A stretch of DNA of 64,000 bases from an uncultured virus (IMG/VR IMGVR_UViG_3300042465_006114). Its lineage: Duplodnaviria; Heunggongvirae; Uroviricota; Caudoviricetes. The notes beneath the pieces were generated by a model that was not told where the DNA came from, made no database searches, and was given only the letters and a program-made list of their open reading frames with translations. Made by a program: the position numbers and the translations under genes. How positions within the stretch are numbered: position 1 is the stretch's first letter; every line of letters begins with the position of its first letter. The stretch lies in the IMG/VR virus record IMGVR_UViG_3300042465_006114, one strand, 5' to 3'. Below are positions 14,383-40,902 of this stretch, piece after piece.

Positions 14383-14729
14383 TAATCAGTTGTTTCTTGT
14401 GAAATTACTTTTCCATCTTTAGCCATAGCTCTTAACAAACCAGTTTTTTTGTTAATCATAATTTTCACACCGTAGTCTTGTAAAATCATTGAACTCAACT
14501 TGTCTAATTCTTTTTTACTTTCTTTACTATCAATAGCTTCACGCATAGCTTGTAGTCCAATCACTGCGTTCTCTTTCAATTTATTTTCTGTATCAGAAAC
14601 TTTCTTCGGTTCTGAATATTTTACATCTAAAAGGTCTTTTTTACTTTTTGTGTTTTTAGGTCTTAATAGCCAAATAAGAAGCAATGCACCTCCTAGTGTA
14701 ATAAACAATGTTTTCGTATTCTTATCCAT
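14382..14729 (-). CDS. N-terminal single-TM protein
   Basis: LFITLGGALLLIWLL followed by a basic stretch. Confidence 0.7.
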   Translation of the reverse strand: MDKNTKTLFITLGGALLLIWLLRPKNTKSKKDLLDVKYSEPKKVSDTENKLKENAVIGLQAMREAIDSKESKKELDKLSSMILQDYGVKIMINKKTGLLRAMAKDGKVISQETTD

Positions 14730-15117
14730 TTTTCTTTTTTGCTAATTTTAATATTACTAACGCTAAAACCGTTACTCCTACTCCTAAAACAATATAAGAA
14801 GTATATTTTTTGGTTTGAACTCTATTTAGCATTTCATTGTTATTCTGAACTGCTAAAAATTGATAAACCATTCCTTGTCTTTCAGTTTCTGACTGAACAT
14901 CTTGCAATCTTTCTTCTAATTGCTTTTGTTGGTCTAAACTTAACTTTGATAATTCAGCTTGAAGTTTTAATGCTTTTTCATTTTCTCCTTTAGCAAAATA
15001 TCCAGCTATTACAGAGTTTATAACCGCACCGCCTAACATAACTCCTATGTCTGCTCCACTAACTCCTCCTTTAGGTGCTACCCCAGTTCCAGTAGCATTA
15101 TTATATAAATTTTCCAT
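14722..15117 (-). CDS. Membrane protein: Gly-rich hydrophobic helix, coiled coil, C-terminal TM
   Basis: Probable start MENLYNNATG at 15117. Confidence 0.7.
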   Translation of the reverse strand: MENLYNNATGTGVAPKGGVSGADIGVMLGGAVINSVIAGYFAKGENEKALKLQAELSKLSLDQQKQLEERLQDVQSETERQGMVYQFLAVQNNNEMLNRVQTKKYTSYIVLGVGVTVLALVILKLAKKKNG

Positions 15118-15119
15118 AA

Positions 15120-15665
15120 TTAATCTTTTGAGCCAATTAAATAAACTCCGTATAAAATTCCAAGTCCTATTCCTAATCCAGTTACATAAAGCCAAGTATC
15201 ATTTAATCTTGCAGTACTTTCTTTTTGCAAAGTTGTTCTGTAAGCTAACATACTATTTATCATAATTTCCAGCCTTGCAGTTTCTTGCATAGCTCTGATT
15301 TTTTCTTCCGCAAGTTTTTCATCTACTGACAATTGTGCTAATGCCAACTTCTTTTGTAAATCTCTATTTTTATCGCCTTCCTTAGCGGCTAAAATACCGC
15401 CAACAACAGAACTTACTACTGAAATTACTAATGAAGCGATAACATTATATTCGCCATCGTTCGCTATCGCATTATCTAATGCTTCCGCAAAAGGTTTGTC
15501 TTGATTTATATATAAAGCAGTATATACAAGTTTAATTATTTGCTTAAATGTTGCGGTTTTTAAATTTATATCATAGCCAAATTGTTGCAGTAAAACTACC
15601 GCAACATCTGGTTTGTCATATATAAAATCGTTTATTTGTTTATCTACTGGGGTTACTTTGTCCAT
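15120..15665 (-). CDS. Membrane protein: hydrophobic helix, coiled coil, C-terminal TM
   Basis: Two hydrophobic segments; architecture like 31432 ORF. Confidence 0.7.
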   Translation of the reverse strand: MDKVTPVDKQINDFIYDKPDVAVVLLQQFGYDINLKTATFKQIIKLVYTALYINQDKPFAEALDNAIANDGEYNVIASLVISVVSSVVGGILAAKEGDKNRDLQKKLALAQLSVDEKLAEEKIRAMQETARLEIMINSMLAYRTTLQKESTARLNDTWLYVTGLGIGLGILYGVYLIGSKD

Positions 15666-15725
15666 ATTTATAAAATATCTAAAATGAATTTAACCACAAT
15701 ATTACAAAAATTATTATTAAGAATA

Positions 15726-16601
15726 TTATTTCAAGGCATTTATTATTGATTGCGTATCAAAAACTTCTGAAAAATTATTGTACGGAAACGTAGAAATATC
15801 TTCGTAAAGTAAGTGCTTTGAGTAGCTATTACTTTCTAAATTAATCTCTTTTGTAGGTTCATTTGCTACAATATTATTATGCAAGTCATATCCAAAAACT
15901 TTAGGATTAGTTCCTATCCATCCAACTACGCTTGGTAAGTTTAATGCAGTACTAATGTGCATCGAGCTACTGTCAATCAAAAGTCTTTTGGTAGAAAGTG
16001 AAAGCATAATAGCTATGCTTCTCCAACTATCTAATGCTCCAATAGTATTTTCATAAATTAATTGGTCATCTCTTTTAATATGCAAAATAGCATAATCATT
16101 TTTAAATTGAGCAACTACTTCATTCACAACGGAAGCTGGAAAATCTCTTGTCCAACTATATTTTAAAGGCTGTCCTACCGCACCTCCGTTTGGCTGAATA
16201 GCCATAATTGGTTTGTCTAATTTATAAAAAGGTGCGAAATATTCTTTTTCTCCTTTAGATAAGAAAATTTCGGGTTGTTCGTTATCATACTTTAATCCAT
16301 ACATTTTGCACCAAATATCAAGCAAATGATTACTTTCTGTTATGAAGTCGCTTGTCATATAAGGGTCTGAAATAAAAACTTTTGTTTCTTTATTATGTAT
16401 GTAATTTTTATAAAAACCTACCGCTTGGGATGGATGCAATACTTTATTTACGTTCGGATTTCCAACAAAAACATCTGTATAACCAGTTACTACTATTATA
16501 TTTGATTTTTTGTATTCTTTTTTAATTACTTTAAGAATTGCGGTAGCCATAATTGATTTACCCAATCCCCCATCTATTTGAAAAATTACATTTTGTATCA
16601 T
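15726..16601 (-). CDS. GT9 (heptosyltransferase)-like glycosyltransferase
   Basis: GGLGKSI N-terminal motif; LLIDSSSMHISTALNLPSVVGW...P..FG. Confidence 0.8.
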   Translation of the reverse strand: MIQNVIFQIDGGLGKSIMATAILKVIKKEYKKSNIIVVTGYTDVFVGNPNVNKVLHPSQAVGFYKNYIHNKETKVFISDPYMTSDFITESNHLLDIWCKMYGLKYDNEQPEIFLSKGEKEYFAPFYKLDKPIMAIQPNGGAVGQPLKYSWTRDFPASVVNEVVAQFKNDYAILHIKRDDQLIYENTIGALDSWRSIAIMLSLSTKRLLIDSSSMHISTALNLPSVVGWIGTNPKVFGYDLHNNIVANEPTKEINLESNSYSKHLLYEDISTFPYNNFSEVFDTQSIINALK

Positions 16602-16611
16602 TTTTTTGTTT

Positions 16612-16932
16612 TTAGTTTAAATAAGCTATTGTTTTTTCAAATATAACTTCGTTAGTCGAATCTGTAACTATGCTATGTTTGTACCCATTAAAATCCTCGT
16701 ACAACTCACTTTCAGTTTTACAAGGTATATTTATCATTATTTCTGAAACTTGAAATTCTATTCCATCAATTACAATTCTCCATCTTCTTGTACCATCAAT
16801 ATCATTATGATTGAATCTAATTTGAATGAAATAGTTACCTTCTGGTTTTCTCATTAAAATTTTTTTCCCTTCTAAAATTAAATCTTGTAAAATACTTGCG
16901 GTTGAATTATTCTTTTTCAATTCCATTATCAT
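16612..16932 (-). CDS. Hypothetical protein
   Basis: ORF in operon. Confidence 0.6.
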   Translation of the reverse strand: MIMELKKNNSTASILQDLILEGKKILMRKPEGNYFIQIRFNHNDIDGTRRWRIVIDGIEFQVSEIMINIPCKTESELYEDFNGYKHSIVTDSTNEVIFEKTIAYLN

Positions 16933-17389
16933 TTGTTTTTTTAAATTGAATTTTATCTAGCAATTCGTTTATAGAAGTAAGTTCGTCAACATCAGTTGTG
17001 TCAATCTCAATAAAATTAGTTTCTGGCTTTTCAAAATTTTCAACGTGAAATCTTTCTCTACCTCTAATATTTTCTGTATGAATATAAATTTCTATTACAT
17101 CGGCAGTAAGTTTAAATTCTTCCCTTAAATCTAAAAAAGGAGAAACTACCGCTATAATTACATCGTATAAAAATTCCGCATCTAAATATTTAGCAATAGC
17201 ATACGCTTTACCAATGTTATCTCTACGACCTTTTTCCGAATAATCTTTATTGTTAAGAATTTTACGCAAAAAATCTCCATCTATTATAAATGCTTTTCTT
17301 AAAGGGTAGTTTATTTCTAAAGCAGTCCTTAAATGTCTAGCTAATGTGCTTTTACCAGAATGGGGTTGTCCAATTAAGTTGTAAATCAT
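16907..17389 (-). CDS. cysC: Adenylyl-sulfate (APS) kinase
   Basis: GQPHSGKSTLA, IDGDFLR, YSEKGRRDNI, VSPF..LRE, FEKPE. Confidence 0.85.
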   Translation of the reverse strand: MIYNLIGQPHSGKSTLARHLRTALEINYPLRKAFIIDGDFLRKILNNKDYSEKGRRDNIGKAYAIAKYLDAEFLYDVIIAVVSPFLDLREEFKLTADVIEIYIHTENIRGRERFHVENFEKPETNFIEIDTTDVDELTSINELLDKIQFKKTNDNGIEKE

Positions 17390-17417
17390 TTTGTTGTTAT
17401 TTTAAAGTTTCTCGGTT

Positions 17418-17425
17418 CAAATATA
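17418..17425 (-). promoter_or_regulatory. Bacteroidota -7 promoter element upstream of cysC
   Basis: TATATTTG on the minus strand. Confidence 0.6.
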
Positions 17426-17433
17426 ATAAAAAT

Positions 17434-18252
17434 TTAAACGTAACCAAAATAATCATAAAACCATTTATAAGTATTTTTTATTGATTGACTTAATTCATAC
17501 CCTAAAACTTCATTATAGTCATCGGGTTTCATTTGAAACTTATCTCTTAGCGTATGGTCGCCATATATTCCGTGAACAAGGTCGTTTTCTTGCGTGTGTT
17601 GAGTAATATTTTCAAAATCGTGTGATTCGTAGTAAGGCACTTCAAAATACTCGTATAAACGCTTCATTTCGATTTCTGGGTTTGCCATTAAATCTTCGTA
17701 ACGAATGAATAACATTTTTTTTGCAATTCCTTGTTGAATAGAATCTTTCAATCTATCCATTGAAACTCCAACTGGAACTCCATCCGCCCAAATATTAATT
17801 CGTTTGTCCAATGTTGTGCCAACTAATTGAGGTGCGTTTTGAATATGACTTTCTCTATGTGGGTTTTTACGAAAGTTTTTTTCCATCGAAGAATAAACCG
17901 AACGTACATCCCTAACCATACAAACGATTTTTGGATTTTCGTTTAGCATATTCAATAAATTATAGTGAATACCCCAATCTCTGCTTTTATCAACGATAAA
18001 TTCTTTTGGTGTAATGTTATTAAAGAAACCTTGCATACCAGCTCTGCAAAAACCTAAAAAAGCGTTTTCCATTACTTGTTTATCTTGCGACAATATGGCT
18101 TGGGAATGAGCATAAGTATTTTTTGAGCTTAACACTAAATCGCCTAATCCAGAGGTAGGCGTACAATAAAATTCTGGGTTTTGGGCAATTAAATTTTGAA
18201 GCAATGTACTACCGCTTCTTGGAAGTGAAGAATTAAAAAAAATTTTTTTCAT
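17434..18252 (-). CDS. PAPS-dependent sulfotransferase
   Basis: SLPRSGSTLL 5'-PSB loop, VRDVRSVYSS 3'-PB, IRYEDL; probable start MKKIFF at 18252. Confidence 0.9.
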   Translation of the reverse strand: MKKIFFNSSLPRSGSTLLQNLIAQNPEFYCTPTSGLGDLVLSSKNTYAHSQAILSQDKQVMENAFLGFCRAGMQGFFNNITPKEFIVDKSRDWGIHYNLLNMLNENPKIVCMVRDVRSVYSSMEKNFRKNPHRESHIQNAPQLVGTTLDKRINIWADGVPVGVSMDRLKDSIQQGIAKKMLFIRYEDLMANPEIEMKRLYEYFEVPYYESHDFENITQHTQENDLVHGIYGDHTLRDKFQMKPDDYNEVLGYELSQSIKNTYKWFYDYFGYV

Positions 18253-18341
18253 AGTTGTTTTTGTTACTTGGTTAAAAAGCCTTTCACTCGGTTTTATTTG
18301 AATTAACAAAGAGGAGTTACCGAGCATTGACTATTTTTTAA

Positions 18342-18880: not shown

Positions 18881-18891
18881 ATTTTTTATTT

Positions 18892-20226
18892 TTATAAAGT
18901 TATACCCACGAAAGGAACGGTTAAGTTTTGATTGGTTGGTGTTCCAAATGGAGATGGAGCAGAACCAAATGCTGGAGATATAGTAAATGAAGTGCTATAA
19001 ATTATTCCATTAATATTAAGAGGTGTTAATTGTGGAACTGGTACTCCAGATAAAGTTTGCGTTGATGAAACTTGAACACCTATCCAATATATTTGTCCAG
19101 CTTCAAATATTTGTACCGTTGTTGCGGTTTTCACACCCTGAGTTGAACAATCTAAATTTGCACTTTCGTATATTTTAGTATCTGGCTTTCCATCTAAATT
19201 AGAGTAAATTAAAATCCTTGCATTTGAACCAGCTATCAAAGTAGTAACGTTTATATATAAAGATGCAGAAGTTATTGTTTGTGATGGAATATATGGAATA
19301 ACAGTTAATTTATTTGCAATTCCAACTATTGTTAACATTGTAGTTCCGTTGATTGCCATTCCCGTACTTAAACCAACCGAAGGCTTTATAGAACTATGTA
19401 TTGCACCGCTTAAATTACACGAAACAAAAAGACCATCTGCATTTACTTTTACAGAACAACCATTGCCAGATGACATAGAGCAAACACTTAAATCATTTAC
19501 AAATGTTGTACAAGCTCTATTAGCAGTTATTTCACTCCCTATAATCATAGCGTTATTACAATTATTTGTGTTATTGTATCTTCCTCCTAAAACAGAAGAA
19601 TAAAAACCAGAAGCGAGATTTGAATAACCACCGCCAATTGTTGACCTTAAACCATTAGCAGTATTACTTCTTCCACCGCCAATTGTTGAATTAAGTTCAG
19701 AAGCAGTGTTGCCTTGACCACCGCCAACTGTTGAATAAGTGCAAGAAGCAATGTTACTAGACCCACCGCCAACTGTTGAATAAGCGGAAGAAGCAGTATT
19801 ATTTGTTCCGCCACCTATTGTTGAATAACTATTAGGAGCATTGTTGTATCCACCACCCCCAATAGTGGCGTAAGCTCCACTCGCATTATTGCTATTCAAA
19901 CAAGGCTCTATGCCACTTGAATTAACATTATACTTAAATGGACTGCATCCACCAACTACCGAGCCATCAAAACCTAAATTTGCTTCGGCAAAAGCAATAA
20001 ATGTAGCAACGGTAAAAGGTGTTCCAGTTGAATCTTCGCAATTTGCTAAAGGTTGATTAAATATAACGGTTGAGTTACTTAAATACTTATTGTATATTAC
20101 TACAAATGGTATTGCATCATACAAAGCTAAAACATCAATCGCACACGAATTTTTAGGTGCAACTAATATTATAGAACCTCCATTTGATATTTGCAAACTC
20201 CCACTTACTATTTCTAATTTTATCAT
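18892..20226 (-). CDS. Fibre/spike-like protein with STIGGGxxNxAS repeats
   Basis: Gly/Ser/Asn beta-solenoid-type repeats; distinct C-terminal beta domain. Confidence 0.75.
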   Translation of the reverse strand: MIKLEIVSGSLQISNGGSIILVAPKNSCAIDVLALYDAIPFVVIYNKYLSNSTVIFNQPLANCEDSTGTPFTVATFIAFAEANLGFDGSVVGGCSPFKYNVNSSGIEPCLNSNNASGAYATIGGGGYNNAPNSYSTIGGGTNNTASSAYSTVGGGSSNIASCTYSTVGGGQGNTASELNSTIGGGRSNTANGLRSTIGGGYSNLASGFYSSVLGGRYNNTNNCNNAMIIGSEITANRACTTFVNDLSVCSMSSGNGCSVKVNADGLFVSCNLSGAIHSSIKPSVGLSTGMAINGTTMLTIVGIANKLTVIPYIPSQTITSASLYINVTTLIAGSNARILIYSNLDGKPDTKIYESANLDCSTQGVKTATTVQIFEAGQIYWIGVQVSSTQTLSGVPVPQLTPLNINGIIYSTSFTISPAFGSAPSPFGTPTNQNLTVPFVGITL

Positions 20227-20246: not shown

Positions 20247-20507
20247 TTAAAAACCTAAATTGGCTTCGGCAAAAGCTATAAATGTACTTGGCGTAAAAAC
20301 CGTATCTGTTAAATCAACACAACTTGACAAAGGTTGATTAAAAACTGGCGTAAAGTTAGCTAAATATTTATTAAAAATTGAAGCAAAAGGAGTTGCTTTT
20401 TTTAAAGCCAATGTATCAATAGCACAAGCATCTTTTGGTATAACAAGTATTATTACGCCATCTTTTGATACTTGTAAACTTCCAACGACTATTTCTAATT
20501 TATTCAT
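20247..20507 (-). CDS. Stand-alone copy of the N-terminal domain of the 18892 fibre
   Basis: MNKLEIVVGSLQ...FIAFAEANLGF nearly colinear with the first 87 aa of the 444-aa ORF. Confidence 0.8.
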   Translation of the reverse strand: MNKLEIVVGSLQVSKDGVIILVIPKDACAIDTLALKKATPFASIFNKYLANFTPVFNQPLSSCVDLTDTVFTPSTFIAFAEANLGF

Positions 20508-20527: not shown

Positions 20528-21784
20528 TTAAGATACTATTTCTAAAACCGTACCGTTTCTCCAAACTGAACCACTTGGTAAACCAGCACTTGCAGTTGGA
20601 ATGTTTTTAATTGATAAATTATTTACAAATGTTGTACAAACTCTATCCGCAGTAATATCACTACCGACAATTATTGCCTTTTCACAAGTGTTCGTGTTAT
20701 TATTACCACCTCCTAAAATTGCTGAATAATTCCCAGAAGCAGTATTACAAGAACCACCACCTATTGTTGAACTAGTACCAGAAGCAGTATTTTGAAAACC
20801 ACCACCAATTACTGAATTTTGACCACTATGACAAATAAGGTTAGAATATCCTCCACTTATTACGCTATTATATATTGGACTTGAAGAATTACCATTTATA
20901 CTATTAAAATTTCCTCCGCTAATTACACTAGCATTAGTTCTGCCTATAATAGAATTACAAAATCCAGCAATTATAATACTACTATTTTTACATCCAGTAT
21001 ATGAACTATATGGATGGTAAGTCGCTATTAAATTACAAAAACCTCCGCCAATAAAATCTCCAGTTTTTTGCGAACCGTACGTACCAGTACCTAGTAAAAT
21101 TTTATTATAACCTCCTCCTACAATTACAGAATTAGCTACAAAAGTTGTGTTTCCTATATAATAACCTCCACCACCAGCAATTACAGAATTAGAACCAGAA
21201 GCAGTATTACCACAACCACCCCCAACTGTTGAATTAAGTTCAGAAGCAATGTTATTTGTGCCACCACCAACTGTTGAGAAAATACAAGAAGCAATATTGT
21301 TTTTACCTCCACCAATTGTAGAACAGGCATTAGAAATAGAATTACTATTACCACCACTAATTGTAGAAGAAGGACTGCAATTAGAAATTAAATTAGATGA
21401 ACCACCGCCAATTGTTGAACGGTCGCCACAAGCTCTGTTAATACTACCACCACTAACTGTTGAATAAACATTAGAAGCACGGTTGTTCGAACCGCCACCA
21501 ACTGTTGATAAAATACAAGAAGCAATGTTGCCTTGACCACCACCAATAGTAGCGAAAACTCCACTTGCATTATTTGTTCCTAAAACTGGCTCTATACCAG
21601 TTCCGTTTGCATCATATTGAAATGGACTACTTGCTCCTAAAATTATAAAATCAGATAATGGTTGAATATTACCCATTACGTCTTTTACTTTCATTATTCC
21701 AGTTGTTCCTTCAACAAAAACCGCCAAACTATTACCGTTTGGACTTGTTATATTATTTTGTTGTGATTTAGTTACATTTCCCAT
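20528..21784 (-). CDS. Fibre/spike-like protein with STIGGG repeats
   Basis: Repeats plus C-terminal LPSGSVWRNGTVLEI. Confidence 0.75.
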   Translation of the reverse strand: MGNVTKSQQNNITSPNGNSLAVFVEGTTGIMKVKDVMGNIQPLSDFIILGASSPFQYDANGTGIEPVLGTNNASGVFATIGGGQGNIASCILSTVGGGSNNRASNVYSTVSGGSINRACGDRSTIGGGSSNLISNCSPSSTISGGNSNSISNACSTIGGGKNNIASCIFSTVGGGTNNIASELNSTVGGGCGNTASGSNSVIAGGGGYYIGNTTFVANSVIVGGGYNKILLGTGTYGSQKTGDFIGGGFCNLIATYHPYSSYTGCKNSSIIIAGFCNSIIGRTNASVISGGNFNSINGNSSSPIYNSVISGGYSNLICHSGQNSVIGGGFQNTASGTSSTIGGGSCNTASGNYSAILGGGNNNTNTCEKAIIVGSDITADRVCTTFVNNLSIKNIPTASAGLPSGSVWRNGTVLEIVS

Positions 21785-21795: not shown

Positions 21796-22470
21796 TTAAT
21801 AAATTTTATTTAAAACGAAATTTTGTGATTGAATTTTATTAGCTACATTTGACGCCCCCCATTGAGCAGTAATTGATAATACATTACTAACAGTCGTATT
21901 AAAAGTTGTATTAGATACTAATGCAAAATTTACACCATCAAGATTAGTGTTAGCATTTTGATTGTATGAATATTGACCATTAACAAATAATTCAGCTACA
22001 CCTAATCCTCCAATTTTGGTTACTGTAAACTCTATAATTAATTCAAAAAACTTATTAGTAGTAATTTTCATTTGAAAAACACCAGCATCAGCTATCACGT
22101 TTCCGTCAGACTTAACTCTTATATGTATTGTTTCATTATTTGCACAAGAAAGACTTCCGCATATTTTTGCAGTAAAGCTATCTCCAACATTAAATCCGTT
22201 AGCTGGAACTGTTAAAGTACCTACTCCAGTACCAATAAGTGAAGTTTCAACCGTAGTGTTTGTTATAAGTGTTCCTAATGAAGTTTGAGCATAAAGACCG
22301 TAATTTCCATTTTGAACTATAATTGTAGGGATAAAATCAGTTATAGGTTGAATATTACCCATTACGTCTTTTACTTTCATAACTTGCGTAACTCCATCAA
22401 CAAAAACCGCCAAACTATTTCCGTTTGGACTTGTAATATTATTTTGACCAGAAGTCGTTACTTTGCCCAT
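21796..22470 (-). CDS. Beta-rich structural protein sharing its N-terminal domain with the 20528 fibre
   Basis: QNNITSPNGNSLAVFV...MKVKDVMGNIQP shared. Confidence 0.75.
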   Translation of the reverse strand: MGKVTTSGQNNITSPNGNSLAVFVDGVTQVMKVKDVMGNIQPITDFIPTIIVQNGNYGLYAQTSLGTLITNTTVETSLIGTGVGTLTVPANGFNVGDSFTAKICGSLSCANNETIHIRVKSDGNVIADAGVFQMKITTNKFFELIIEFTVTKIGGLGVAELFVNGQYSYNQNANTNLDGVNFALVSNTTFNTTVSNVLSITAQWGASNVANKIQSQNFVLNKIY

Positions 22471-24003: not shown

Positions 24004-24474
24004 TTATTTTTTATTTGTTAAAAATATTGATAACCCTATTAATAAAATACTTGCTCCAAAAAATATTCTTTTATTTCTTTCATAGGTAGTATTTTCATTT
24101 ATTCTCGAAGCGTCTAAAGCAGAAAAAGTATTTAATACATTTTTTAATACCACTTGTTTTTTTTCTTCTATTTTTTTTGCACAACCTAAATCATTAAATT
24201 CTTTTTTTAATAAATACAAAGTAGTATTAAATGAAGATGCTCCAGTTATATTTCCTTGTTGTAATTTGGCATCAAATGCGTTTGTCATATTGGAAATATG
24301 AGATTCTAAATACTGACATTTTTCCATAGCGGTATCTTTTCCGCAACCACCATTTTCATATTCTTTTTTTAATTTAAAAACATAACTTGTGTAATCGCCT
24401 AAATTATAATATTGACCACCTACATCGTATGCTTCCCATTCATTTTTTTTAGATTGACACTGTATTGGATTCAT
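24004..24474 (-). CDS. Cys-containing helical protein with C-terminal TM (paralog family A)
   Basis: YERNKRIFFG shared with 25407 ORF. Confidence 0.75.
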   Translation of the reverse strand: MNPIQCQSKKNEWEAYDVGGQYYNLGDYTSYVFKLKKEYENGGCGKDTAMEKCQYLESHISNMTNAFDAKLQQGNITGASSFNTTLYLLKKEFNDLGCAKKIEEKKQVVLKNVLNTFSALDASRINENTTYERNKRIFFGASILLIGLSIFLTNKK

Positions 24475-24475
24475 A

Positions 24476-24910
24476 TTATTTTTTTTTAATTAAAATAAAA
24501 GTTGCGGTTAATAGAATTATCCCTCCTAATATAATATAGATATTTTGCTCAACAAAAGATTTTTTTAAAACTGACTGTTCGGATAATATCGCACCTTTAG
24601 TTTCTAATGTAGCCGATTCAGCTAATCTAGTTTCTTCTATCCTAGTTTCACAATCAAATCCATTAAATTTCTTTAATATTAATTCTCTTGCATAGGAAAG
24701 AAATCCAATTTTTGTATCGTTATTAAAAGACTTTCTTAATTGTGCAATTTCATCTGTAATTTTTTTAACATCAAAATCTAAATCAATACAGTTAGCTCCT
24801 TTAGGAGATATTGCACCGTACTTAGTTACGTTTAAATATTTTAAAGCACCTTCATTGAACATTTTCATTTCATAAGATGTCATTTGATTTAATGTAATTG
24901 GATTATACAT
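24476..24910 (-). CDS. Cys-containing helical protein with C-terminal TM (paralog family A)
   Basis: CxxLD...C..RIE..R..ESA...EQSVLK shared with 25856 ORF. Confidence 0.75.
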   Translation of the reverse strand: MYNPITLNQMTSYEMKMFNEGALKYLNVTKYGAISPKGANCIDLDFDVKKITDEIAQLRKSFNNDTKIGFLSYARELILKKFNGFDCETRIEETRLAESATLETKGAILSEQSVLKKSFVEQNIYIILGGIILLTATFILIKKK

Positions 24911-24913
24911 ATA

Positions 24914-25405
24914 TTAACCTCTCCTTCCTATTGCGTAAACTCTCGTGTTTACTGTTGTTGATGGGGTTGATGATGTTGTTCCTCTAACTGTTGATGTTCC
25001 TACTTGTGTTACATCGGTAACATATACTGGTGTAGTTGGCACATATTTTGGAGTATCAGAAATACCCAAACTATTATTTACGATATTATTTTTAATTGTA
25101 TTTGTTATTTCAATACATTCCCTCCTAGATAAACCAGCACATTCAGAAGCTCTAATTTCACTATCTAAAGTTGTCGGAGAGTTTGTATATTGTGTAGGTA
25201 CATATACAGAACCTGTGTCTTTACTAGGATTAACTGTTGTTGACGAATTAGGTAATGTTAATTTTTCTTCAATTAAAGAAGTTGTATCTTTATTTAAAGA
25301 GTTTAATTGACTTTGAGATATTGTAGGTTTGTTTTTTTGCAAAAAATAATATCCCAACGCAATAACTGAACCTACCCCTAAATATATAAAAATTTTATTT
25401 TTCAT
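24914..25405 (-). CDS. N-terminal TM protein, Thr/Ser/Pro-rich
   Basis: N-terminus similar to 26305 ORF (KNKPT..S.QL). Confidence 0.7.
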   Translation of the reverse strand: MKNKIFIYLGVGSVIALGYYFLQKNKPTISQSQLNSLNKDTTSLIEEKLTLPNSSTTVNPSKDTGSVYVPTQYTNSPTTLDSEIRASECAGLSRRECIEITNTIKNNIVNNSLGISDTPKYVPTTPVYVTDVTQVGTSTVRGTTSSTPSTTVNTRVYAIGRRG

Positions 25406-25406
25406 C

Positions 25407-25853: not shown

Positions 25854-25855
25854 AA

Positions 25856-31009: not shown

Positions 31010-31432
31010 TTATTTTTTTCTTGTTACCACAAAAATTACAAGACCTAAAATAACAACTCCGCCAACTCCTAAAGCAATGTAAAGCGTTTTGTTTCCGCCA
31101 CTACTAGCTCCAGCTCCAGCTTTTGCAGTTTCTAAATCTAATCTTTTACCTTCCAATATCAATTGAGCAACCCTTTCTTGCGATACTCCTTGTGCAATTA
31201 AGGCATCTGCTTGTTTTTGAGCTATTTTTCTTTGAGCTTCACTTGCATAAATAGTACTTCCGATATTTACCGCAGAGCCTATTGTACCAGCCCAATCAAA
31301 TCCACTACCTTTTGAAGTAGTAGAAGGCTTTGATGTACCAGAACCAGAACCAGAACCAAAACCAAAATCAAAGGTTGGAATTGAGTAATCACTAGAATTA
31401 AATCCAGTTGCGTTTTTATACATATAATTCAT
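31010..31432 (-). CDS. Virion membrane protein candidate (YKNATG, amphipathic helix, C-terminal TM)
   Basis: NATGFNSSDYSIPTFDF shared with 31432 ORF. Confidence 0.75.
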   Translation of the reverse strand: MNYMYKNATGFNSSDYSIPTFDFGFGSGSGSGTSKPSTTSKGSGFDWAGTIGSAVNIGSTIYASEAQRKIAQKQADALIAQGVSQERVAQLILEGKRLDLETAKAGAGASSGGNKTLYIALGVGGVVILGLVIFVVTRKK

Positions 31433-32037
31433 TATTGTTTCTTTTTAATTATTAAATAAGTTATAAAACCAACTAATGTTAAACCCAACAAACTTATACC
31501 TACAATTGCTCCAGTACTCATACCAGTTTTAGCAGTTGAACCCTTTTCTTCTGGTTGTGTTTCAGAAATCTTAACACTTGCATTAGCTAATTCTCTTTTA
31601 GTTTTATTGTCATCTAATTGTAAATAACCTTGAAAACCAGTTTGTAGAATATTTAATCCTTGATTAAGCCAACTTGGACTTGAACTATTTGTTGAAACCG
31701 TTGTTGCTGGAGGATTTTTAATAGGTGTGTTTGTAACAAAATCAAAAGTTGGAAGTGTGTAGTCATTAGAACTGAATCCAGTTGCATTTGCATAAGAACC
31801 ACTCATATTTAATGAAATTCCAGAAACAACATCTTCACTTAACAATAATTTAGAAAAATCTCTGTAAAAAGATTTAGAAATTTTAAGCAAGTTAGTTACC
31901 AATAAGGCAATTTGAATATCGGAAGCATTGCTAGGTGCAACTACTCCGTTTTTAAGTAATAAAGATACTACTTCATTTTTTTTATTACGAACTACATACA
32001 TTATTCCGTATGCACCTACATTTGCTTTTGAAGTCAT
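31432..32037 (-). CDS. Virion membrane protein candidate (YANATG, C-terminal TM)
   Basis: NATGFSSNDYTLPTFDF; TM. Confidence 0.75.
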   Translation of the reverse strand: MTSKANVGAYGIMYVVRNKKNEVVSLLLKNGVVAPSNASDIQIALLVTNLLKISKSFYRDFSKLLLSEDVVSGISLNMSGSYANATGFSSNDYTLPTFDFVTNTPIKNPPATTVSTNSSSPSWLNQGLNILQTGFQGYLQLDDNKTKRELANASVKISETQPEEKGSTAKTGMSTGAIVGISLLGLTLVGFITYLIIKKKQ

Positions 32038-32038: not shown

Positions 32039-32425
32039 TTAATTATTTTTATAAATTAAAGCAGTTACAATAAATAATGTAGCTACAACCAATATTACGT
32101 TAGTTTGATGTGCTAAAGTATCTGGTGTTTTTTCTTTTGGTGTTTCAGCACCACTTGCGTTCATATAATGCTCTTGCGTTTTTGTTCTTTGACAATTACC
32201 ACAACCACATTCAGATTTTTTATTATCTGACCATATTTCCAAAATAATATCTTTGTCTGGATGAAATTCCATAACTTTTTTCAAAGCTGGTTCTCCAATT
32301 TGTGATACTAATTCGCTTAAACTTTGACCTAAATTTCTTCTTTCGGTAACTTCATACCCAAATGAATTAATTATCATTTCAGCTCCTCTAGGGTCGTTGT
32401 CTGCAACATATTTATATACTGACAT
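32039..32425 (-). CDS. Membrane protein with CGCGNC cluster, YMNASG and C-terminal TM
   Basis: HPDKD...CGC; TM. Confidence 0.75.
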   Translation of the reverse strand: MSVYKYVADNDPRGAEMIINSFGYEVTERRNLGQSLSELVSQIGEPALKKVMEFHPDKDIILEIWSDNKKSECGCGNCQRTKTQEHYMNASGAETPKEKTPDTLAHQTNVILVVATLFIVTALIYKNN

Positions 32426-32517: not shown

Positions 32518-33213
32518 TTATCCTTTAATTCTAATAGTTTGACCATTAGTAACTGGAGGAGTACCGAATTGTCTGCTTACAGATTGACCACCTAAAGCAC
32601 GAGCAAGGTTTATGTTGTCTGCTGGGTAGAAGTATAATTTCACAGTAGCATTTGCCAATACTTGACGAATGATAATTTTAGTGAAACCATCTATTCTATA
32701 CGCATATTTCATAGCGATAATCGTGGTTTGTTGTTGGTAAGGGTCAATTGTAGGCACAAGTGTTTTTTGTGCTAAATTACCATTTGCATCTTTAGTGTTT
32801 ACACTTAAAGTTTCCAATACTTGATTTGCAGTTGCAGACTGGATGTAAGTTAAACCAACTGAATAAGGATTATTCATAAATTGGTACAACATTTCACGGT
32901 AGTTTACATCTGAAATACCAGAGCTAATTGTGATTGAACCGATTACTAAATCTCCATTAGCTTGGAAACCAGCGTTGTTGATGTATTGGTAAGAACCTAA
33001 TACTTCAAAATTTGATACTGCCGAACCACTAGTAGATGTAATATCTAATATGTATGGTTGAGAAGTTTGAACGTTTCCGCCCCCCATTCCCTCTGCGTTG
33101 AAGAAGTCATCTCCAGTAAACGATAAATCGTTGTCGATGAAACCATCAGCGTTTGAGAAAGATTCCATTGCATTTCTTTGTGCATTGGCTAAATATTTAC
33201 GAACATTTGACAT
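32518..33213 (-). CDS. Candidate major capsid protein (beta-rich, possible single jelly-roll) with N-terminal propeptide
   Basis: Soluble beta-rich 231 aa protein among TM genes near the packaging ATPase; codons enriched in TTC/AAC/ATC/CGT; own terminator; has a paralog. Confidence 0.55.
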   Translation of the reverse strand: MSNVRKYLANAQRNAMESFSNADGFIDNDLSFTGDDFFNAEGMGGGNVQTSQPYILDITSTSGSAVSNFEVLGSYQYINNAGFQANGDLVIGSITISSGISDVNYREMLYQFMNNPYSVGLTYIQSATANQVLETLSVNTKDANGNLAQKTLVPTIDPYQQQTTIIAMKYAYRIDGFTKIIIRQVLANATVKLYFYPADNINLARALGGQSVSRQFGTPPVTNGQTIRIKG

Positions 33214-33525: not shown

Positions 33526-34176
33526 TTATTTTAAAAGTAATACGCCACCAATAAATCCAATTCCTATTTTTATAATAGTACTATCATACCACTTGCTTGG
33601 TTGTTTAATTTCTATGTGCTGAATACCATCTGTTTCTACAAAAGGATTAGCGTGGGTAATATCTGTTACGCTTGTGCGTTTGCCCCAAAACCATTTTCTT
33701 TTATCTCCGCTTACTACAATTACACTATCTGGAATATTTAATTTAGTAATTTCTATTCCTTTTTGATTTGATTTATAAGCTATACTATACCATTGTTTAA
33801 AAACGCTATCTGTTATTTGAAAATTACAAGGAATTGAATCTTTATAAGTTAATTTAATAGTGTCAAACTTTGTATTGGTAACATACTTAGTAACCGCTTT
33901 GACTTTAGAAAACTTATTAGTTAATTCCTTTAGCTTTTTATCACTCATTAAAACAGAATTTTTTAACTGACTATTCGTATATGATAAGTTTTCGATGCTC
34001 GTAACTAATTGACCGTTTCTTAATTTATAAACTTTAGCTTTACTATTTAAGGATTTGATATTTGCTAATTGAGTTTTTTCGTTTTCACATTTTGAAAATA
34101 ATTGTGAAACTAAAAGAAAACAAGTCATTATTAATAATGATATGTAAACTTTTTTTGTGTCGATTGATGTGTCCAT
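33526..34176 (-). CDS. Spanin-like lysis accessory protein
   Basis: N-terminal TM/Cys, coiled coil, C-terminal KWY...GIGFIGGVLL; follows the lysozyme. Confidence 0.5.
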   Translation of the reverse strand: MDTSIDTKKVYISLLIMTCFLLVSQLFSKCENEKTQLANIKSLNSKAKVYKLRNGQLVTSIENLSYTNSQLKNSVLMSDKKLKELTNKFSKVKAVTKYVTNTKFDTIKLTYKDSIPCNFQITDSVFKQWYSIAYKSNQKGIEITKLNIPDSVIVVSGDKRKWFWGKRTSVTDITHANPFVETDGIQHIEIKQPSKWYDSTIIKIGIGFIGGVLLLK

Positions 34177-34182
34177 ATATTA

Positions 34183-34668
34183 TTATTTAAAAAATAAATT
34201 CACTTCTTCTTCTCTACGTTTTATTAAACCATTTAAAGTTTTACCTCCTCCAGTAATACATAGCTTTTTCCAATAAGCCTTCAATTCTTTTTCTGGCATA
34301 TTTGAATTAATATTATTAAATAAATTATAATATTGTTGCTTACCGTTTTTATCTATATAAGTTGCACCAGCATTATATAAAAAATCTACTACCGCATCAA
34401 ATTGATTTTGATTTAAGTTATCTCTACATAATTTATCGCATAATGGAGCAAATACTAAATTGATATGTCCTTTAGCTAACCTTACTGCTTCTTCGTGAGT
34501 TATTGGCTTATCATTTTGCTTAACCCTTTTTTTGGTATCGAAATAAAAAGTTGTTCCCAGTCCAATTGTCCAAATTTTAGCTGGACACTTATAAGGTTTT
34601 TCGGAAAACCCTTCGTATTTCTCTATTGATTTTATAAGTTCATCGCTTACTGTTGTTATCTTACTCAT
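34183..34668 (-). CDS. Phage lysozyme (GH24) endolysin
   Basis: YEGFSEKPYKCPAKIWTIGLG, NQNQFDAVVDFLYNAG, LNGLIKRREEE. Confidence 0.92.
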   Translation of the reverse strand: MSKITTVSDELIKSIEKYEGFSEKPYKCPAKIWTIGLGTTFYFDTKKRVKQNDKPITHEEAVRLAKGHINLVFAPLCDKLCRDNLNQNQFDAVVDFLYNAGATYIDKNGKQQYYNLFNNINSNMPEKELKAYWKKLCITGGGKTLNGLIKRREEEVNLFFK

Positions 34669-34862
34669 TGTTGTTTTGATTTATAAATTTTTTCTACTAC
34701 ACTTATCGCCCCCTCTACTGACATATAAGTAACTGCAATTATTACCCAATCGCCACTTTCTATTGATTTTGTAAAAAGTCCAGTTGATGCAACCGCAAAA
34801 ACTATAAGTTTTCTACTAATCCATTTTGATAAATATTTATCTATGTATTCTTGTCTGCTCAT
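34665..34862 (-). CDS. Putative holin
   Basis: 65 aa, SRK followed by two hydrophobic segments, overlapping the lysozyme start. Confidence 0.65.
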   Translation of the reverse strand: MSRQEYIDKYLSKWISRKLIVFAVASTGLFTKSIESGDWVIIAVTYMSVEGAISVVEKIYKSKQQ

Positions 34863-34864: not shown

Positions 34865-35686
34865 TTATCCTAAATAGTATTTAATAATTCTGTCTTTATG
34901 GTATCTGACTGCACTTTCTGGCGTATGAACTTTTGTTCCTCTACCTAAATCTCTTTTTTGAAGCATAGGACTAATTAACTTTTTATAGTTTTCAGAAATA
35001 TACTGCTCTACTATTGATTCAAATTTTTTCTTATCTACATTTTTAATCTTTTCATCATCAATATCTACATAACAAAAGTAACGTTGATTATCAAAATTAT
35101 GATATTCATTATTCGTATAGTTCTCTACTAATTTAAGCATTTCATATTTGTCCTCAAACTTTGTTCGGTGTTTATCAACACTATCTGTATTTTTATGAAA
35201 TCTAATCCAGTTAAGGTTTTGCCATATTTTAGGAGATACCCTACCAACCGATTGAAAGTGCAAAATAATATCTGTATCAGTATGTCTATTGGTACAAATC
35301 GCACCAACAAGGTCGTTTGGTAAATAATCAGAAACATATCTATTCACATCTTCTATTAACAACAACCCACCTCTAAAATCATTTAAAATTTTAAATAAAG
35401 TATCTTGAATTTCATTAATAGTCATCCTTTGTCCGTTGTCGTGAAAAGGTCTAATTCTTCTGGCTTCAATTCTGGGGTGTGCCGAAAACCTCATAACGTC
35501 AGAAAGTTTCAATGCTTTTATATCTTCAAACTCGTCATTTACATCCAATATCAATGCTCTACGAGGAGCAACCCCTTTAGATGGGTTGCCCAATATATAG
35601 CTTTGAATCATTTTAGTTGTCTGATACGTTTTTCCGCAACCCTTTCTACCAACCGCAACGCCTAATTTTGGTTCTCTTTCTTCCAT
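34865..35686 (-). CDS. FtsK/HerA-superfamily genome-packaging ATPase (A32/P9-like)
   Basis: Walker A GRKGCGKT, ILD, Walker B LLLIED, then NRH...IILHFQS (Arg-His plus Gln sensor) motif; stand-alone 273 aa. Confidence 0.75.
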   Translation of the reverse strand: MEEREPKLGVAVGRKGCGKTYQTTKMIQSYILGNPSKGVAPRRALILDVNDEFEDIKALKLSDVMRFSAHPRIEARRIRPFHDNGQRMTINEIQDTLFKILNDFRGGLLLIEDVNRYVSDYLPNDLVGAICTNRHTDTDIILHFQSVGRVSPKIWQNLNWIRFHKNTDSVDKHRTKFEDKYEMLKLVENYTNNEYHNFDNQRYFCYVDIDDEKIKNVDKKKFESIVEQYISENYKKLISPMLQKRDLGRGTKVHTPESAVRYHKDRIIKYYLG

Positions 35687-37168: not shown

Positions 37169-37173
37169 AACTA

Positions 37174-37557: not shown

Positions 37558-37568
37558 ATTTATCCATA

Positions 37569-38475: not shown

Positions 38476-38512
38476 CTTTTTAAAATTTATTTATATTATT
38501 CTTAAAATTTAT

Positions 38513-38668: not shown

Positions 38669-38678
38669 ACTACTAATA

Positions 38679-39278
38679 TTATTCAATTCTACCAAATGGC
38701 AATAATTTTCTAACTCTGGAAATGTTACCTTTCATCAAATTAACGTATGTTGTTGAGTTCATTGTTGAATAACCAGCTTGAACTAACATTTTAATTTGCT
38801 CCTCTGGACTTTTAGCATTTAGTCTAGCGTTTTTATATCTATCTCCTAACAACACCGCAAAGTGCTTTTTTATTCCTTCTGTTGGGTCTTTAAATTTTGC
38901 AAACTTGGTATTAGGAACAGAAACTTTTCTCCCTCTTACCACTTCGGTTGTGTCTGCTACAACATAGCTATCGTGAATAGAAGGATTATATTTTATACCA
39001 GCAAAATTATTGCTAATAGCACCAGTTACTTTATCAGTTGGTAAATTTCTACCGTATCCGCTTTCAAAAATAGATTGAGCTATAATTCCACTTAAAAATA
39101 ATCCAGTACCTTTTACCGCAGTAATAAATGGTACTCCAAATTTATCTACAAAATACCTAACTTTAGTATCGGCATCAACATAGTTATTGAAAGTTGCTTT
39201 GTCTAACTTATCTAGGTAAGCAACTAATTCTTCATTAGTCATTTTTAAATAATCAGATTTTGATTTTAAACTTGCCAT
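38679..39278 (-). CDS. GH73 glucosaminidase (FlgJ-like) peptidoglycan hydrolase
   Basis: IAQSIFESGYG, NNFAGIK, TTE, FAKF, AGYST. Confidence 0.85.
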   Translation of the reverse strand: MASLKSKSDYLKMTNEELVAYLDKLDKATFNNYVDADTKVRYFVDKFGVPFITAVKGTGLFLSGIIAQSIFESGYGRNLPTDKVTGAISNNFAGIKYNPSIHDSYVVADTTEVVRGRKVSVPNTKFAKFKDPTEGIKKHFAVLLGDRYKNARLNAKSPEEQIKMLVQAGYSTMNSTTYVNLMKGNISRVRKLLPFGRIE

Positions 39279-39287
39279 AATTATAAT

Positions 39288-39425
39288 TTATTTAGCTTTA
39301 TACACTGTAACTCCAGTTTTTGTTTTTGAAGCTACATAAGTTTTACCGTTATATGTAAACGATGATGATTTTTTCTTTTTGGCTTCCAACATTGCTTTGA
39401 AATAACCATTTACCGCTTTTGCCAT
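39288..39425 (-). CDS. 45-aa highly basic protein (absent from ORF track)
   Basis: MAKAVNGYFKAMLEAKKKKSSSFTYNGKTYVASKTKTGVTVYKAK. Confidence 0.6.
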   Translation of the reverse strand: MAKAVNGYFKAMLEAKKKKSSSFTYNGKTYVASKTKTGVTVYKAK

Positions 39426-39436
39426 AATATTATTTT

Positions 39437-39781
39437 TTAAATTTTTTTTACTTTTTTACCCATTCCTACCTTTAGCTTTTCATTCTGTTTAGCTTTTAAT
39501 TTTGACTTGCTAATTTCTTGAACTGTTTTAGGCGTTTTGGATGAAACTTTTTTTGTCGGTCTGCAATATTCTTTTTTACCACCAGCTCCACAAGGTTTTC
39601 CAGTTAAGGTATCAATCCATTTTTCTGCACTCCACCTTTTTAAACTTAAACCCTCTTTTGACTTATTTACTACTCCAGATTTTTTTCTACATTTAGCAAT
39701 AGCTTGTGATGCTCTTGCCGAAGGAAAAACATCATAAGTAGCTTTTACAGTTTTGTAGCATTTATCTTTTACAGTTGCCAT
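39437..39781 (-). CDS. Basic Cys-containing protein
   Basis: LKRWSAEKWID...CG...YCRPTKKVSSKTPKT; very Lys-rich. Confidence 0.7.
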   Translation of the reverse strand: MATVKDKCYKTVKATYDVFPSARASQAIAKCRKKSGVVNKSKEGLSLKRWSAEKWIDTLTGKPCGAGGKKEYCRPTKKVSSKTPKTVQEISKSKLKAKQNEKLKVGMGKKVKKI

Positions 39782-39797
39782 AATTACATTTTTTTAA

Positions 39798-40145
39798 TTA
39801 TTTAAACCCTTTTTGTGGCATACCAGTTTTTTGTTCTATTTCTCTTAATCGTGCATTTTCATTTGCTCGTATGCTTGGTGGTACAAAAATACCCCAATAA
39901 GAGTTTTTACCACCACCCATAAACACATATTGTAATCCAGTTATTGCCACAATAGGAATAGAAACTAATAATGCACTTTTTAATAAACTAAATTTTTTCT
40001 TGTAACTATATGCTCCAATTAACGCTACTGGAACAATTGAAGCACTTGCTCTTTTTAAAAAATTAGCACTTGTGTAATATTTTAAGTTAGAAGTTTCTTC
40101 TTGTGTTTGTAAATATCCTAAAGGTTGATTTGGCATTTGGCTCAT
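39798..40145 (-). CDS. Two-TM protein
   Basis: Two hydrophobic segments. Confidence 0.65.
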   Translation of the reverse strand: MSQMPNQPLGYLQTQEETSNLKYYTSANFLKRASASIVPVALIGAYSYKKKFSLLKSALLVSIPIVAITGLQYVFMGGGKNSYWGIFVPPSIRANENARLREIEQKTGMPQKGFK

Positions 40146-40149
40146 AATT

Positions 40150-40902
40150 TTACTTTTTAAATTTATTAAATGCGATGTAACCTACAACTAAAGCTAAAGA
40201 AATTAATAAATATTTTTTATTTTTTTCTATAAAATTATTTGTTTCTGGAGTTGTTTTTAAGTCTGTTTTTACTTCTGTTTTAATTGGTGTTAAATAATCA
40301 GCAGAAGTATTCGTTAAATAATCAGCAGAAGTTCCAGTTGCGTTTAATAAACCTCTACTTTCCTCACTAGATAAATTATTTAATGAAGAATATAATTTTT
40401 CAGTTTCATTTGATGACATTGAAAATCCTTTTTTAAAGTGTTTTAATACTCTTTTAAATGTACTTGTAGGATTTGAAATTTTATTAATTACTATTTTACC
40501 ATCTTGTAAATCTCTAAATGAATTTTCCCCATAGTAAATTCTATTACCATCAGTAGCAAACATAGTTGCGGTAAAATCAGATTTATTAATAGTATCCATA
40601 GGATTATTAAAAAATACTTTAGCTAAATCAAAAGTATTGTTTTTATAAATAACTTTTACTCCTTTATCACTTTCATAAATAGTTCTTGCTCCTTTAGATT
40701 TTAAATAATTTTTAGCTTTATTAAACTCGTTTGCATTAGGAAAAAATATATCACAATCACTTGACCAAGTTCTGTCAGACAAATAATCTCGTAAAACTCC
40801 ACCAGCAATCCAACAATTAACCCCCTTATCCTTCAATTCTTTTAGAATTAAATTGTTGCAATAAACTATTGCGGATATTTTCTTTTTATCAATTTCTTTC
40901 AT
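40150..40902 (-). CDS. Class II nucleotidyltransferase (CCA/poly(A) polymerase head-like) with C-terminal TM
   Basis: WIAGGVLRDYL...SDCDIF, DFTATMFA; ends in TM plus KFKK. Confidence 0.8.
   Translation of the reverse strand: MKEIDKKKISAIVYCNNLILKELKDKGVNCWIAGGVLRDYLSDRTWSSDCDIFFPNANEFNKAKNYLKSKGARTIYESDKGVKVIYKNNTFDLAKVFFNNPMDTINKSDFTATMFATDGNRIYYGENSFRDLQDGKIVINKISNPTSTFKRVLKHFKKGFSMSSNETEKLYSSLNNLSSEESRGLLNATGTSADYLTNTSADYLTPIKTEVKTDLKTTPETNNFIEKNKKYLLISLALVVGYIAFNKFKK

Follow-up and report, generated by a model that had tools for sequence, protein, structure and literature searches.

A conserved aromatic-x-[N/G/S]-[A/F/V]-x-G motif shared by a coat-protein candidate and several membrane-anchored proteins of an uncultured, probably tailless phage

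Consensus-site maturation is known from adenoviruses and large tailed phages. The adenovirus protease cuts at (M/I/L)xGG↓x and (M/I/L)xGx↓G, T4 gp21 at LxE↓, and the phiKZ-type proteases at S/A/G-x-E↓. Short peptides can also serve as addresses: the encapsulin cargo-loading peptides, the microcompartment encapsulation peptides and the T4 capsid targeting sequence are terminal or disordered-linker peptides on unrelated proteins; such shell-targeting peptides mark proteins for the same particle, and are present or absent among orthologues. In a stretch of 64,000 nucleotides from an uncultured virus (IMG/VR record IMGVR_UViG_3300042465_006114; hereafter the window), an earlier note made from the sequence alone had pointed to a recurrent hexamer, [FY]-x-N-A-x-G, in a capsid candidate and in membrane proteins. 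The present analysis showed that this motif is a conserved protein-level signal common to the coat-protein candidate and several membrane-anchored proteins. One common reader very probably exists. The primary role of the motif is read, with a probability of about 0.4, as that of a non-proteolytic, multivalent docking or assembly address tag.

All eight instances listed in the earlier note were located where it had placed them, and all lie in minus-strand open reading frames (ORFs). The coat-protein candidate and the instances are as follows; the other carriers are named below by a coordinate of their gene.

32518-33213, minus strand: coat-protein candidate, 231 residues, with an N-terminal helix (residues 2-17), a disordered leader (about 18-48) and a jelly-roll beta sandwich (54-215)
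33142-33159, minus strand: FSNADG, leader copy 1, residues 19-24 of the coat-protein candidate, followed by F25 and D27
33088-33105, minus strand: FFNAEG, leader copy 2, residues 37-42 of the coat-protein candidate, with SFTGDD directly before it
32150-32167, minus strand: YMNASG, residues 87-92 of the 128-residue protein 32039-32425, between an N-terminal Cys-cluster domain and a linker with a hydrophobic segment (residues 107-125)
31777-31794, minus strand: YANATG, residues 82-87 of the 201-residue protein 31432-32037, followed by FSSNDYTLPTFDF; hydrophobic segment at 178-196, tail KKKQ
31403-31420, minus strand: YKNATG, residues 5-10 of the 140-residue protein 31010-31432, followed by FNSSDYSIPTFDF; hydrophobic segment at 119-137, tail RKK
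15088-15105, minus strand: YNNATG, residues 5-10 with the ATG at 15117 taken as the start (MENLYNNATG), in ORF 14722-15195; C-terminal hydrophobic segment, tail KKKNG
40333-40350, minus strand: LLNATG, a relaxed form, residues 185-190 of the protein 40150-40902, after a nucleotidyltransferase-like domain and before a linker with a hydrophobic segment and the tail KFKK
30159-30176, minus strand: FKGADG, a relaxed form and the weakest instance, residues 40-45 of the protein 29931-30293

Six of the eight instances fit the strict [FY]xNAxG, and LLNATG and FKGADG fit relaxed forms only. The matches are confined to the minus-strand block between 14.7 and 40.9 kb, and no strict match was found in the plus-strand ORFs scanned. 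Their placement was as claimed: the motif begins at residue 5 in two proteins, and in four it lies at the junction between an N-terminal domain and the linker that precedes a C-terminal hydrophobic segment. About 21 small proteins of the minus strand (22481-43442) end with such a hydrophobic segment and a basic tail (KKK, RKK, KFKK). In 113 non-overlapping ORFs (19,839 residues), five strict matches were counted against 0.41 expected from within-protein shuffles, and five were reached in 2 of 2000 shuffles (a second run gave a mean of 0.39 and 0/1000); the count omits the sixth strict match, YNNATG, the ORF of which was dropped by the overlap filter. The looser [FY]xNxxG was not enriched in this window alone (11 against 7.6 expected, a number reached in 154/1000 shuffles). 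The pattern was defined after the data had been seen; the case is therefore rested on conservation in relatives.

The AlphaFold2 model of the coat-protein candidate, built from a 99-sequence alignment, has a predicted local distance difference test score (pLDDT) of 87.2; residues 20-40 score below 50, and the two motif copies are located in this disordered stretch. The capsid role suggested in the earlier note is putative: the beta sandwich is modelled with confidence, but the fold matches are generic jelly rolls among unrelated sandwiches. The best VIA match has a Z of 6.2, and the matches include PR772 P31 (5.7), phiCjT23 (5.3) and the FLiP major capsid protein (5.2), with PM2 also in the range of 5-6; Foldseek against the PDB gave no match at E<=1e-3, and the template-modelling scores (TM-scores) against BFVD were <=0.28. 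It is a reasonable inference that this is the coat protein of a tailless, membrane-lined phage. A second gene of the window encodes a shorter homologue:

13933-14382, minus strand: leaderless paralogue of the coat-protein candidate, 149 residues (BLASTP E 2e-10; shared PTIDPYQ.Q)

The paralogue begins at the first barrel strand, has homologues in 66 related loci, and may be a second coat or a vertex (penton) protein. Some relatives carry tandem coat-candidate genes, both with the leader motif (9276-9977 and 10001-10702 in locus L029); others have an extra divergent coat paralogue, in which a basic hydrophobic N-terminus replaces the leader (6784-7437 in locus L010).

Conservation in homologues was found at the protein level, first in the leader of the coat-protein candidate. 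Copy 1 reads F[SA]NADGF in 32/32 close orthologues (63-97% identity). Copy 2 is more variable among them, including FFNAGG, FFRADG, FFGADG and FYGADA. In the wider family (99 representatives, 26-60% identical to the query, to which the coat-family counts refer), the columns of copy 1 hold F/Y in 74/92, N/S/G in 88/93, A/F in 66/93, D/N in 68/93 (D in 54 and N in 14) and G in 81/93. An aromatic residue (F/W/Y) follows in 80/85, and position 9 is D/N/E in 63/71. Copy 2 lies 18 residues further on, and retains Ala40 in 91/99 and Gly or Ala at position 42 in 89/99. The information content is 3.46 bits at G24, 3.69 at A40 and 3.07 at G42, against about 1 bit in the flanks. A profile hidden Markov model (HMM) of the leader (residues 15-46) returned the coat-protein candidate as the only significant match among all window ORFs (E 0.4-7 for the other carriers), because the motif is too short for a profile HMM.

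Among the membrane-anchored carriers, the 32039 family was compared over 57 distinct orthologues. The first position of the motif is Y/F in 57/57, the third N in 46 and G in 11, the fourth A/F/V in 56/57, and the last G in 53/57. Position 5, at +2 from the Asn, is S/T in 38/57, D in 11 and N in 4. The motif columns hold 3.3-3.95 bits against about 1-1.7 in the flanks, and the surrounding linker is variable and gapped. The codons of the motif vary synonymously (AAT or AAC, four Ala codons and four Gly codons), and selection is therefore on the peptide rather than on the DNA; a DNA-level signal is thus ruled out. One clade has a 32039 orthologue with F-x-G-A-D-G, the coat-type variant, so that a single consensus covers the membrane and coat versions, which are interchangeable. 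An apparent covariation between coat copy 2 and the 32039 motif is a clade-level likeness (F.GADG/A) of at most one or two events, discordant in the most distant clade, and was given no weight. A Cys cluster (CGCGNC, residues 73-78) lies just upstream of the motif in 32039, with C73 kept in 43/52, C75 in 45/54 and C78 in 25/45 orthologues; it may be a metal or disulfide site adjoining the tag.

The other carriers are less uniform. Orthologues of 31432 show YxNxxG variants (YANANG, YSNAGG, YMNFTG, FSNASG), and 15 of its 45 blast matches lack a strict [FYW]xNxxG. The protein 31010 is a paralogue of 31432, and some of its short orthologues keep the motif at the N-terminus (MQDLYNNYSGF, MIDMYNNAPGD, MESYNNLTG, MQDRYNNLTG). 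Among six homologues of the 15117 protein, YxNxxG is present in three (YNNVEG, YRNAGG, YNNVGG), partial in one (KADGF) and absent from two. The protein 40150-40902 matches the PHROGs families phrog_4400 (1.4e-18) and phrog_1614, a nucleotidyltransferase (1.6e-8), and its motif reads [LM]L[NS]A[NR]G in six full-length homologues. FKGADG, also claimed as an instance, is present in 29931, but the site is poorly conserved: its 29 homologues show, for example, FIGVNG, FLNFSG, LLNVTG, YLAFEG and FENFAN, and in many it is deleted.

Taken over all families, the core of the pattern proposed in the earlier note stands, and the fuller consensus is aromatic-x-[N/G/S]-[A/F/V]-x-G, in many cases with a further aromatic residue directly after the Gly. 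By sequence comparison, the hexamer appears as the core of a longer bipartite acidic-aromatic module, ..NADGF.D.D..FTGDDFFNAxG. Within the window, the coat segment SFSNADGFIDNDLSFTGDDFF aligns with MYKNATGFNSSDYSIPTFDF of 31010 and SYANATGFSSNDYTLPTFDF of 31432. In distant relatives, 12 distinct non-coat proteins, most of them KKK-tailed, carry the coat-type FTG-x-[DE][DE]-F-[FY]-N-x-x-G, and in some of these the FTGxDDF unit is repeated in tandem, two or three times. Across families without detectable relationship to one another, namely the coat, 32039, 31432/31010, 40150 and 15117 families, the columns of the motif are conserved while their flanks vary.

Counts over related loci point the same way; they include orthologues, so that the rows are not independent events. 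In 34 more distant loci (coat 43-74% identical), [FYW]xN[AVFLMIY]xG occurs 166 times against 32.7 expected. Among 1894 distinct non-coat proteins of 71 related loci, 241 motifs were found against 52.0 expected (4.6-fold). At least two copies are present in 22 of these non-coat proteins, and 18 adjacent pairs have a spacing of 12-40 residues, where random placement within the same proteins would give 6.9 (0/2000); the modal spacing is 16-22. A C-terminal anchor is found in 136/216 motif-bearing proteins and in 498/1678 others (odds ratio 4.0 in this orthologue-rich set). The distance from motif to anchor has a median of about 64 residues (interquartile range 15-103), and in 16/216 motif-bearing proteins the motif lies within the first 13 residues.

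Compared with the consensus-site maturation proteases, the locus is similar in that one motif recurs in flexible segments of several unrelated putative virion proteins, including the coat precursor, with a predicted protease gene in the same module; the carriers are taken as virion proteins from gene position. It differs from the adenovirus, T4 and phiKZ systems in the motif itself, in the candidate enzyme (a zinc peptidase nearest M48 rather than a cysteine or serine protease), and in that cleavage is a prediction here. The conserved module is also about 20 residues long and can occur in tandem, and some carriers retain the motif at the very N-terminus. The likeness to the shell-targeting peptides is in the short conserved peptide within a disordered terminus or linker (3-4 bits against about 1 bit in gapped flanks), in the unrelated carriers, and in its presence or absence among orthologues; whereas here the carriers are membrane-anchored, the coat itself is tagged, the tag is often bipartite, and binding is predicted. 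The acidic-aromatic repeats in disordered regions also resemble endocytic adaptor motifs (DPF/W, FxDxF), which bind beta-sandwich appendage domains, and such repeats suit low-affinity, multivalent binding to a platform of this kind; this is an analogy only, from eukaryotic and unrelated biology, and implies no homology.

Two further likenesses are partial. As in the LPxTG/sortase, PEP-CTERM/exosortase and GlyGly-CTERM/rhombosortase systems, a hydrophobic segment and a basic C-terminal tail (KKK, RKK) come after the motif. However, a sorting signal of this type is ruled out by the median spacing of about 64 residues to the anchor, by the anchorless coat-protein candidate, and by the two carriers with the motif at residue 5. 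The nodavirus (N↓A) and tetravirus (N↓F) autocleavage sites also join an Asn to a small or aromatic residue in a jelly-roll coat; whereas here the Asn is often G or S in homologues, the site is in a disordered leader, and the motif also occurs in non-capsid proteins.

The earlier note had also named an HEFSH zincin as the enzyme that might cut the motif.

29144-29929, minus strand: HEFSH zinc-peptidase candidate, 261 residues, with a beta sandwich at residues 1-96 (CBM- or GOLD-like) and a helical catalytic domain

The protein was found in 64 of the 71 related loci; in the remaining seven, the contig stops after less than 3 kb beyond the coat gene. HE[FY][SA]H is present in 64/64 of these proteins, and H188, E189, H192, E202, E204 and D206 are invariant in 30 sequences of the family. 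The AlphaFold2 model has a pLDDT of 92.1 and a predicted template-modelling score of 0.90. By VIA, the catalytic domain is closest to BepA (6sar_A; Z 8.5, root-mean-square deviation 4.1 Å, 122 residues), followed by the M48 structures 3c37_B (Z 6.8), ZMPSTE24 (6.5) and Ste24 (6.4). No Pfam, NCBIfam or PDB sequence match was above threshold, and no Foldseek match was obtained at E<=1e-3. The zincin matches were sub-threshold only; among 30 members, Pfam gave Peptidase_M48 in one (E 0.14), SprT-like in six and M56 in three. From its model, the protein looks like a zinc peptidase nearest M48, with predicted activity, encoded by a core gene of the module. It is a candidate reader or cutter of the motif, and its targets might be virion proteins or the host envelope.

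The phrase of the earlier note, a maturation cleavage or assembly signal, spans both docking and cleavage; the conserved and shared signal was confirmed, and the two roles have to be weighed. Docking is favoured because the conservation is about 20 residues long, with tandem units, paired copies of preferred spacing and N-terminal retention. In the two families with the motif at residues 5-10 there is no upstream domain to release, which also counts for docking. One virus-encoded partner would bind the motif multivalently between the inner membrane and the protein shell, and would thereby gather the coat protein and selected membrane proteins in a single assembly. The sequences predict a geometry in which the cytoplasmic face of the viral membrane, towards the shell, would bear the motif and the N-terminal parts of the carriers; the KKK tails would point to the lumen or DNA, and the coat leader would share the interspace with the motif. 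Cleavage would not be required for this function and might follow it. The two roles are compatible if the tag is bound first and cut later, as is the T4 capsid targeting sequence.

Several points weigh against docking. The reader, or partner, of the motif is putative, and the membrane topology of the carriers is likewise deduced from their sequences. The statistics on pairs and anchor association count orthologues and not independent events. AlphaFold2 leaves the leader undocked on its own barrel (pLDDT below 50), and this model speaks weakly against the monomeric coat core as the receptor. Only six of the roughly 21 C-terminally anchored window proteins bear the motif, and some 31010 orthologues begin without it (MSKFDW.., MSFFTT..). 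The motif thus appears dispensable for the 31010, 29931 and 15117 proteins, since some of their orthologues lack it. The conserved zinc peptidase of the same module needs substrates, for which the motif is the obvious candidate site, and the hydrophobic position 4 would suit the P1' residue of a metallopeptidase.

The last two points lead to the main rival, which is possible on odds that fall short of even: the M48-like zinc peptidase would be a virion maturation protease, and the motif the consensus at which it cuts. If it cut after assembly, perhaps between the Asn and its small or hydrophobic neighbour, the coat protein would lose its leader, and the N-terminal portions of the anchored proteins would be freed or trimmed. 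The peptidase candidate is a core gene (64/71 loci, the rest truncated contigs, with HExxH in 64/64), and it has a confident model with a catalytic domain nearest M48 (BepA Z 8.5). Its presumed sites are in disordered linkers at domain boundaries of unrelated proteins. Zinc endopeptidases usually prefer a small or hydrophobic P1' residue, and position 4 is of this kind (A/F/V in 56/57 of the 32039 family). The coat leader of about 48 residues contains two copies, while the paralogue 13933-14382 is leaderless; in 40150, motif, linker and anchor tether a soluble nucleotidyltransferase-like domain, as would suit anchoring followed by release. Against this, cleavage at the motif is a prediction, and the family assignment is weak (no Foldseek match at E<=1e-3, Pfam matches sub-threshold). 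Its CBM-like sandwich at the N-terminus would be just as fitting in an enzyme that targets the host surface. The conservation over about 20 residues with tandem FTGDDF units exceeds a usual cleavage site, and a motif kept four residues from the N-terminus has nothing to release. To our knowledge, no cultured prokaryotic membrane-lined tailless phage uses a maturation protease. With the bipartite spacing, the tandem FTGDDF units, the anchor association and the M48-like fold taken together, docking is weighed somewhat above cleavage.

The remaining rivals dispense with a dedicated partner or assign another one. A self-contained structural element, either an Asx/Gly turn or an EF-hand- or dockerin-like metal loop (x-x-N-x-D-G-x-x-D) suited to linkers beside a membrane, would need no common reader, and is improbable. 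The coat segment FSNADGFIDNDL does have N, D, G and D at loop positions 3, 5, 6 and 9, and the coat family agrees with this at positions 5 (D/N 68/93) and 9 (D/N/E 63/71). However, position 1 is an invariant Asp in EF-hand and DxDxDG loops, whereas it is aromatic here (74/92 in the coat family and 57/57 in the 32039 family), and position 5 is T/S/A/V/G in the membrane proteins; a calcium loop of the EF-hand or DxDxDG type is thus rejected. Without a shared partner, it is also difficult to account for the recurrence in unrelated proteins of one lineage, with the same FTGDDF context. An N-glycosylation sequon (N-x-S/T) used by a phage glycosyltransferase is highly improbable, in agreement with the earlier note. 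Five window instances read NAT or NAS, NA[ST]G occurs six times in the window ORFs against 0.73 expected, and the window encodes glycosyltransferases (for example 57367-58650); whereas S/T at +2 is limited to 38/57 in the 32039 family, and D (54/93) and N (14/93) dominate there in the coat family. The same column reads NAVG, NAAG, NVNG, NFNG, NAGG or GADG, the Asn is replaced by G or S in homologues (N in 46/57 of the 32039 family), and the best-conserved positions, the Gly at +3 and the aromatic at -2, are not needed by a sequon. The NxS/T sequons overall were not enriched in the window ORFs (195 against 181 expected). Least probable of all is that the motif arose by chance or from composition in N/A/T/G-rich linkers, or from the shared ancestry of two paralogues alone. 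This would be consistent with the post hoc pattern, the paralogy of 31010 and 31432, and the loose [FY]xNxxG at 11 against 7.6 in the window; but not with conserved columns in families without detectable relationship, or with the 4.6-fold excess in 71 loci.

The virus itself is probably a large, tailless, membrane-lined phage with a bacterial host. The guanine plus cytosine (G+C) content of the window is about 29%, and from about 12 kb to 64 kb it forms a single long block of tightly packed minus-strand genes. The following features of the block bear on this assignment:

34865-35686, minus strand: small P-loop ATPase, 273 residues (Pfam: weak AAA match only)
34183-34668, minus strand: lysozyme, a peptidoglycan hydrolase (Pfam)
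38679-39278, minus strand: glucosaminidase, a peptidoglycan hydrolase (Pfam)
42048-42734, minus strand: GH108 peptidoglycan hydrolase (Pfam)

The ATPase gene was found in 70 related loci, and Zot or DUF87 was assigned in 13-20% of the members of its Atlas neighbours; it is probably the genome-packaging ATPase, and as such bears on the assignment to a tailless, membrane-lined phage. No terminase, portal, HK97-type coat or tail families were found among 41 window proteins with Pfam and PHROGs. The coat-protein candidate, the ATPase and a 524-residue protein had no tblastn match among GenBank phages, and PDB sequence searches with the coat alignment, the zinc-peptidase alignment and the ATPase returned nothing meaningful.

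The lineage is very common in metagenomes: homologues of the coat-protein candidate number 1852 proteins at E<=0.001 (90% clusters), and 550 cluster representatives at 50% identity (E<=1e-3). The related IMG/VR contigs are 60-102 kb in length. No cultured member was found in the phage collection searched. A full-text literature search with general terms returned nothing on the lineage or the motif, which is weak evidence of their being unpublished. One relative, with an 83% identical coat-protein candidate, is on a 132-kb contig binned with a Sediminibacterium metagenome-assembled genome. This contig has a G+C of 0.29-0.34 over about 128 kb and of 0.457 in the last 4 kb only, and has matches to 50 of the 113 window proteins, spread over about 110 kb. 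It represents a relative of much greater size, an integrated copy or a chimeric contig, and the binning is a weak lead to the host.

Little is understood of how the shell of a tailless membrane-lined phage picks out the correct membrane patch and membrane proteins, even in models such as PRD1 and PM2. If the docking reading is true, a portable peptide code on the coat and membrane proteins offers a concrete, testable handle on assembly, and the motif might serve as a tag with which foreign proteins are loaded into these particles. The fullest form of the proposal, advanced tentatively and as somewhat unlikely, is that in a lineage of uncultured, tailless, membrane-lined phages of 60-100 kb, a bipartite acidic-aromatic zip code ties the coat and tail-anchored proteins to one hub, and is possibly erased later by the M48-like zinc peptidase. 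This would be the first virion-wide targeting-peptide system, and possibly the first consensus-site maturation system, for prokaryotic jelly-roll viruses. If the zinc peptidase does cut the motif, consensus-site maturation would extend to a new enzyme class and a new virus group.

Other genes of the window were also noted. A probable lysis cassette (33526-34862, minus strand) lies directly upstream of the coat gene, and consists of a 65-residue membrane protein, the phage lysozyme and a DUF6549 protein with an N-terminal hydrophobic segment. Within the block 22481-43442, 12 further proteins have an N-terminal hydrophobic segment only, and four adjoining, paralogue-like genes at 24004-26293 share conserved Cys pairs. 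The 159-residue product of 13479-13958 (minus strand) has sub-threshold matches to PPPDE (Peptidase_C97, E 8e-7) and LRAT; its His and NCEHF motifs and C-terminal hydrophobic segment are like those of the H-box/NC (PLAAT/LRAT-type) papain-fold acyltransferases or phospholipases, and in the particle it might act as a second peptidase or modify lipids.

Adjoining APS-kinase-like (E 1e-10) and sulfotransferase (E 1e-18) genes within the late block (16907-18327, minus strand) suggest that the phage may sulfate some glycan or protein. Large proteins encoded at 43526-47277 and 52697-56515 (minus strand) contain repeated units of the NERKHVNH.EDYEVRYAK type and GG-rich stretches, and an ArdA anti-restriction domain (E 3e-21) is found at 44896-47277. 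A protein of 1272 residues, with DUF5661 and a sub-threshold ART-PolyVal match, looks like a 'polyvalent' injected protein. Fibre-like proteins with GGGxxNxAS repeats are encoded at 18892-20226 and 20528-21784 (minus strand), and these, together with an NHL/beta-propeller protein at 12292-13542, are probably host-recognition spikes. The fibre-like proteins are preceded by the short ORFs 20247-20507 and 21796-22470, each of which repeats the N-terminal module of its neighbour.

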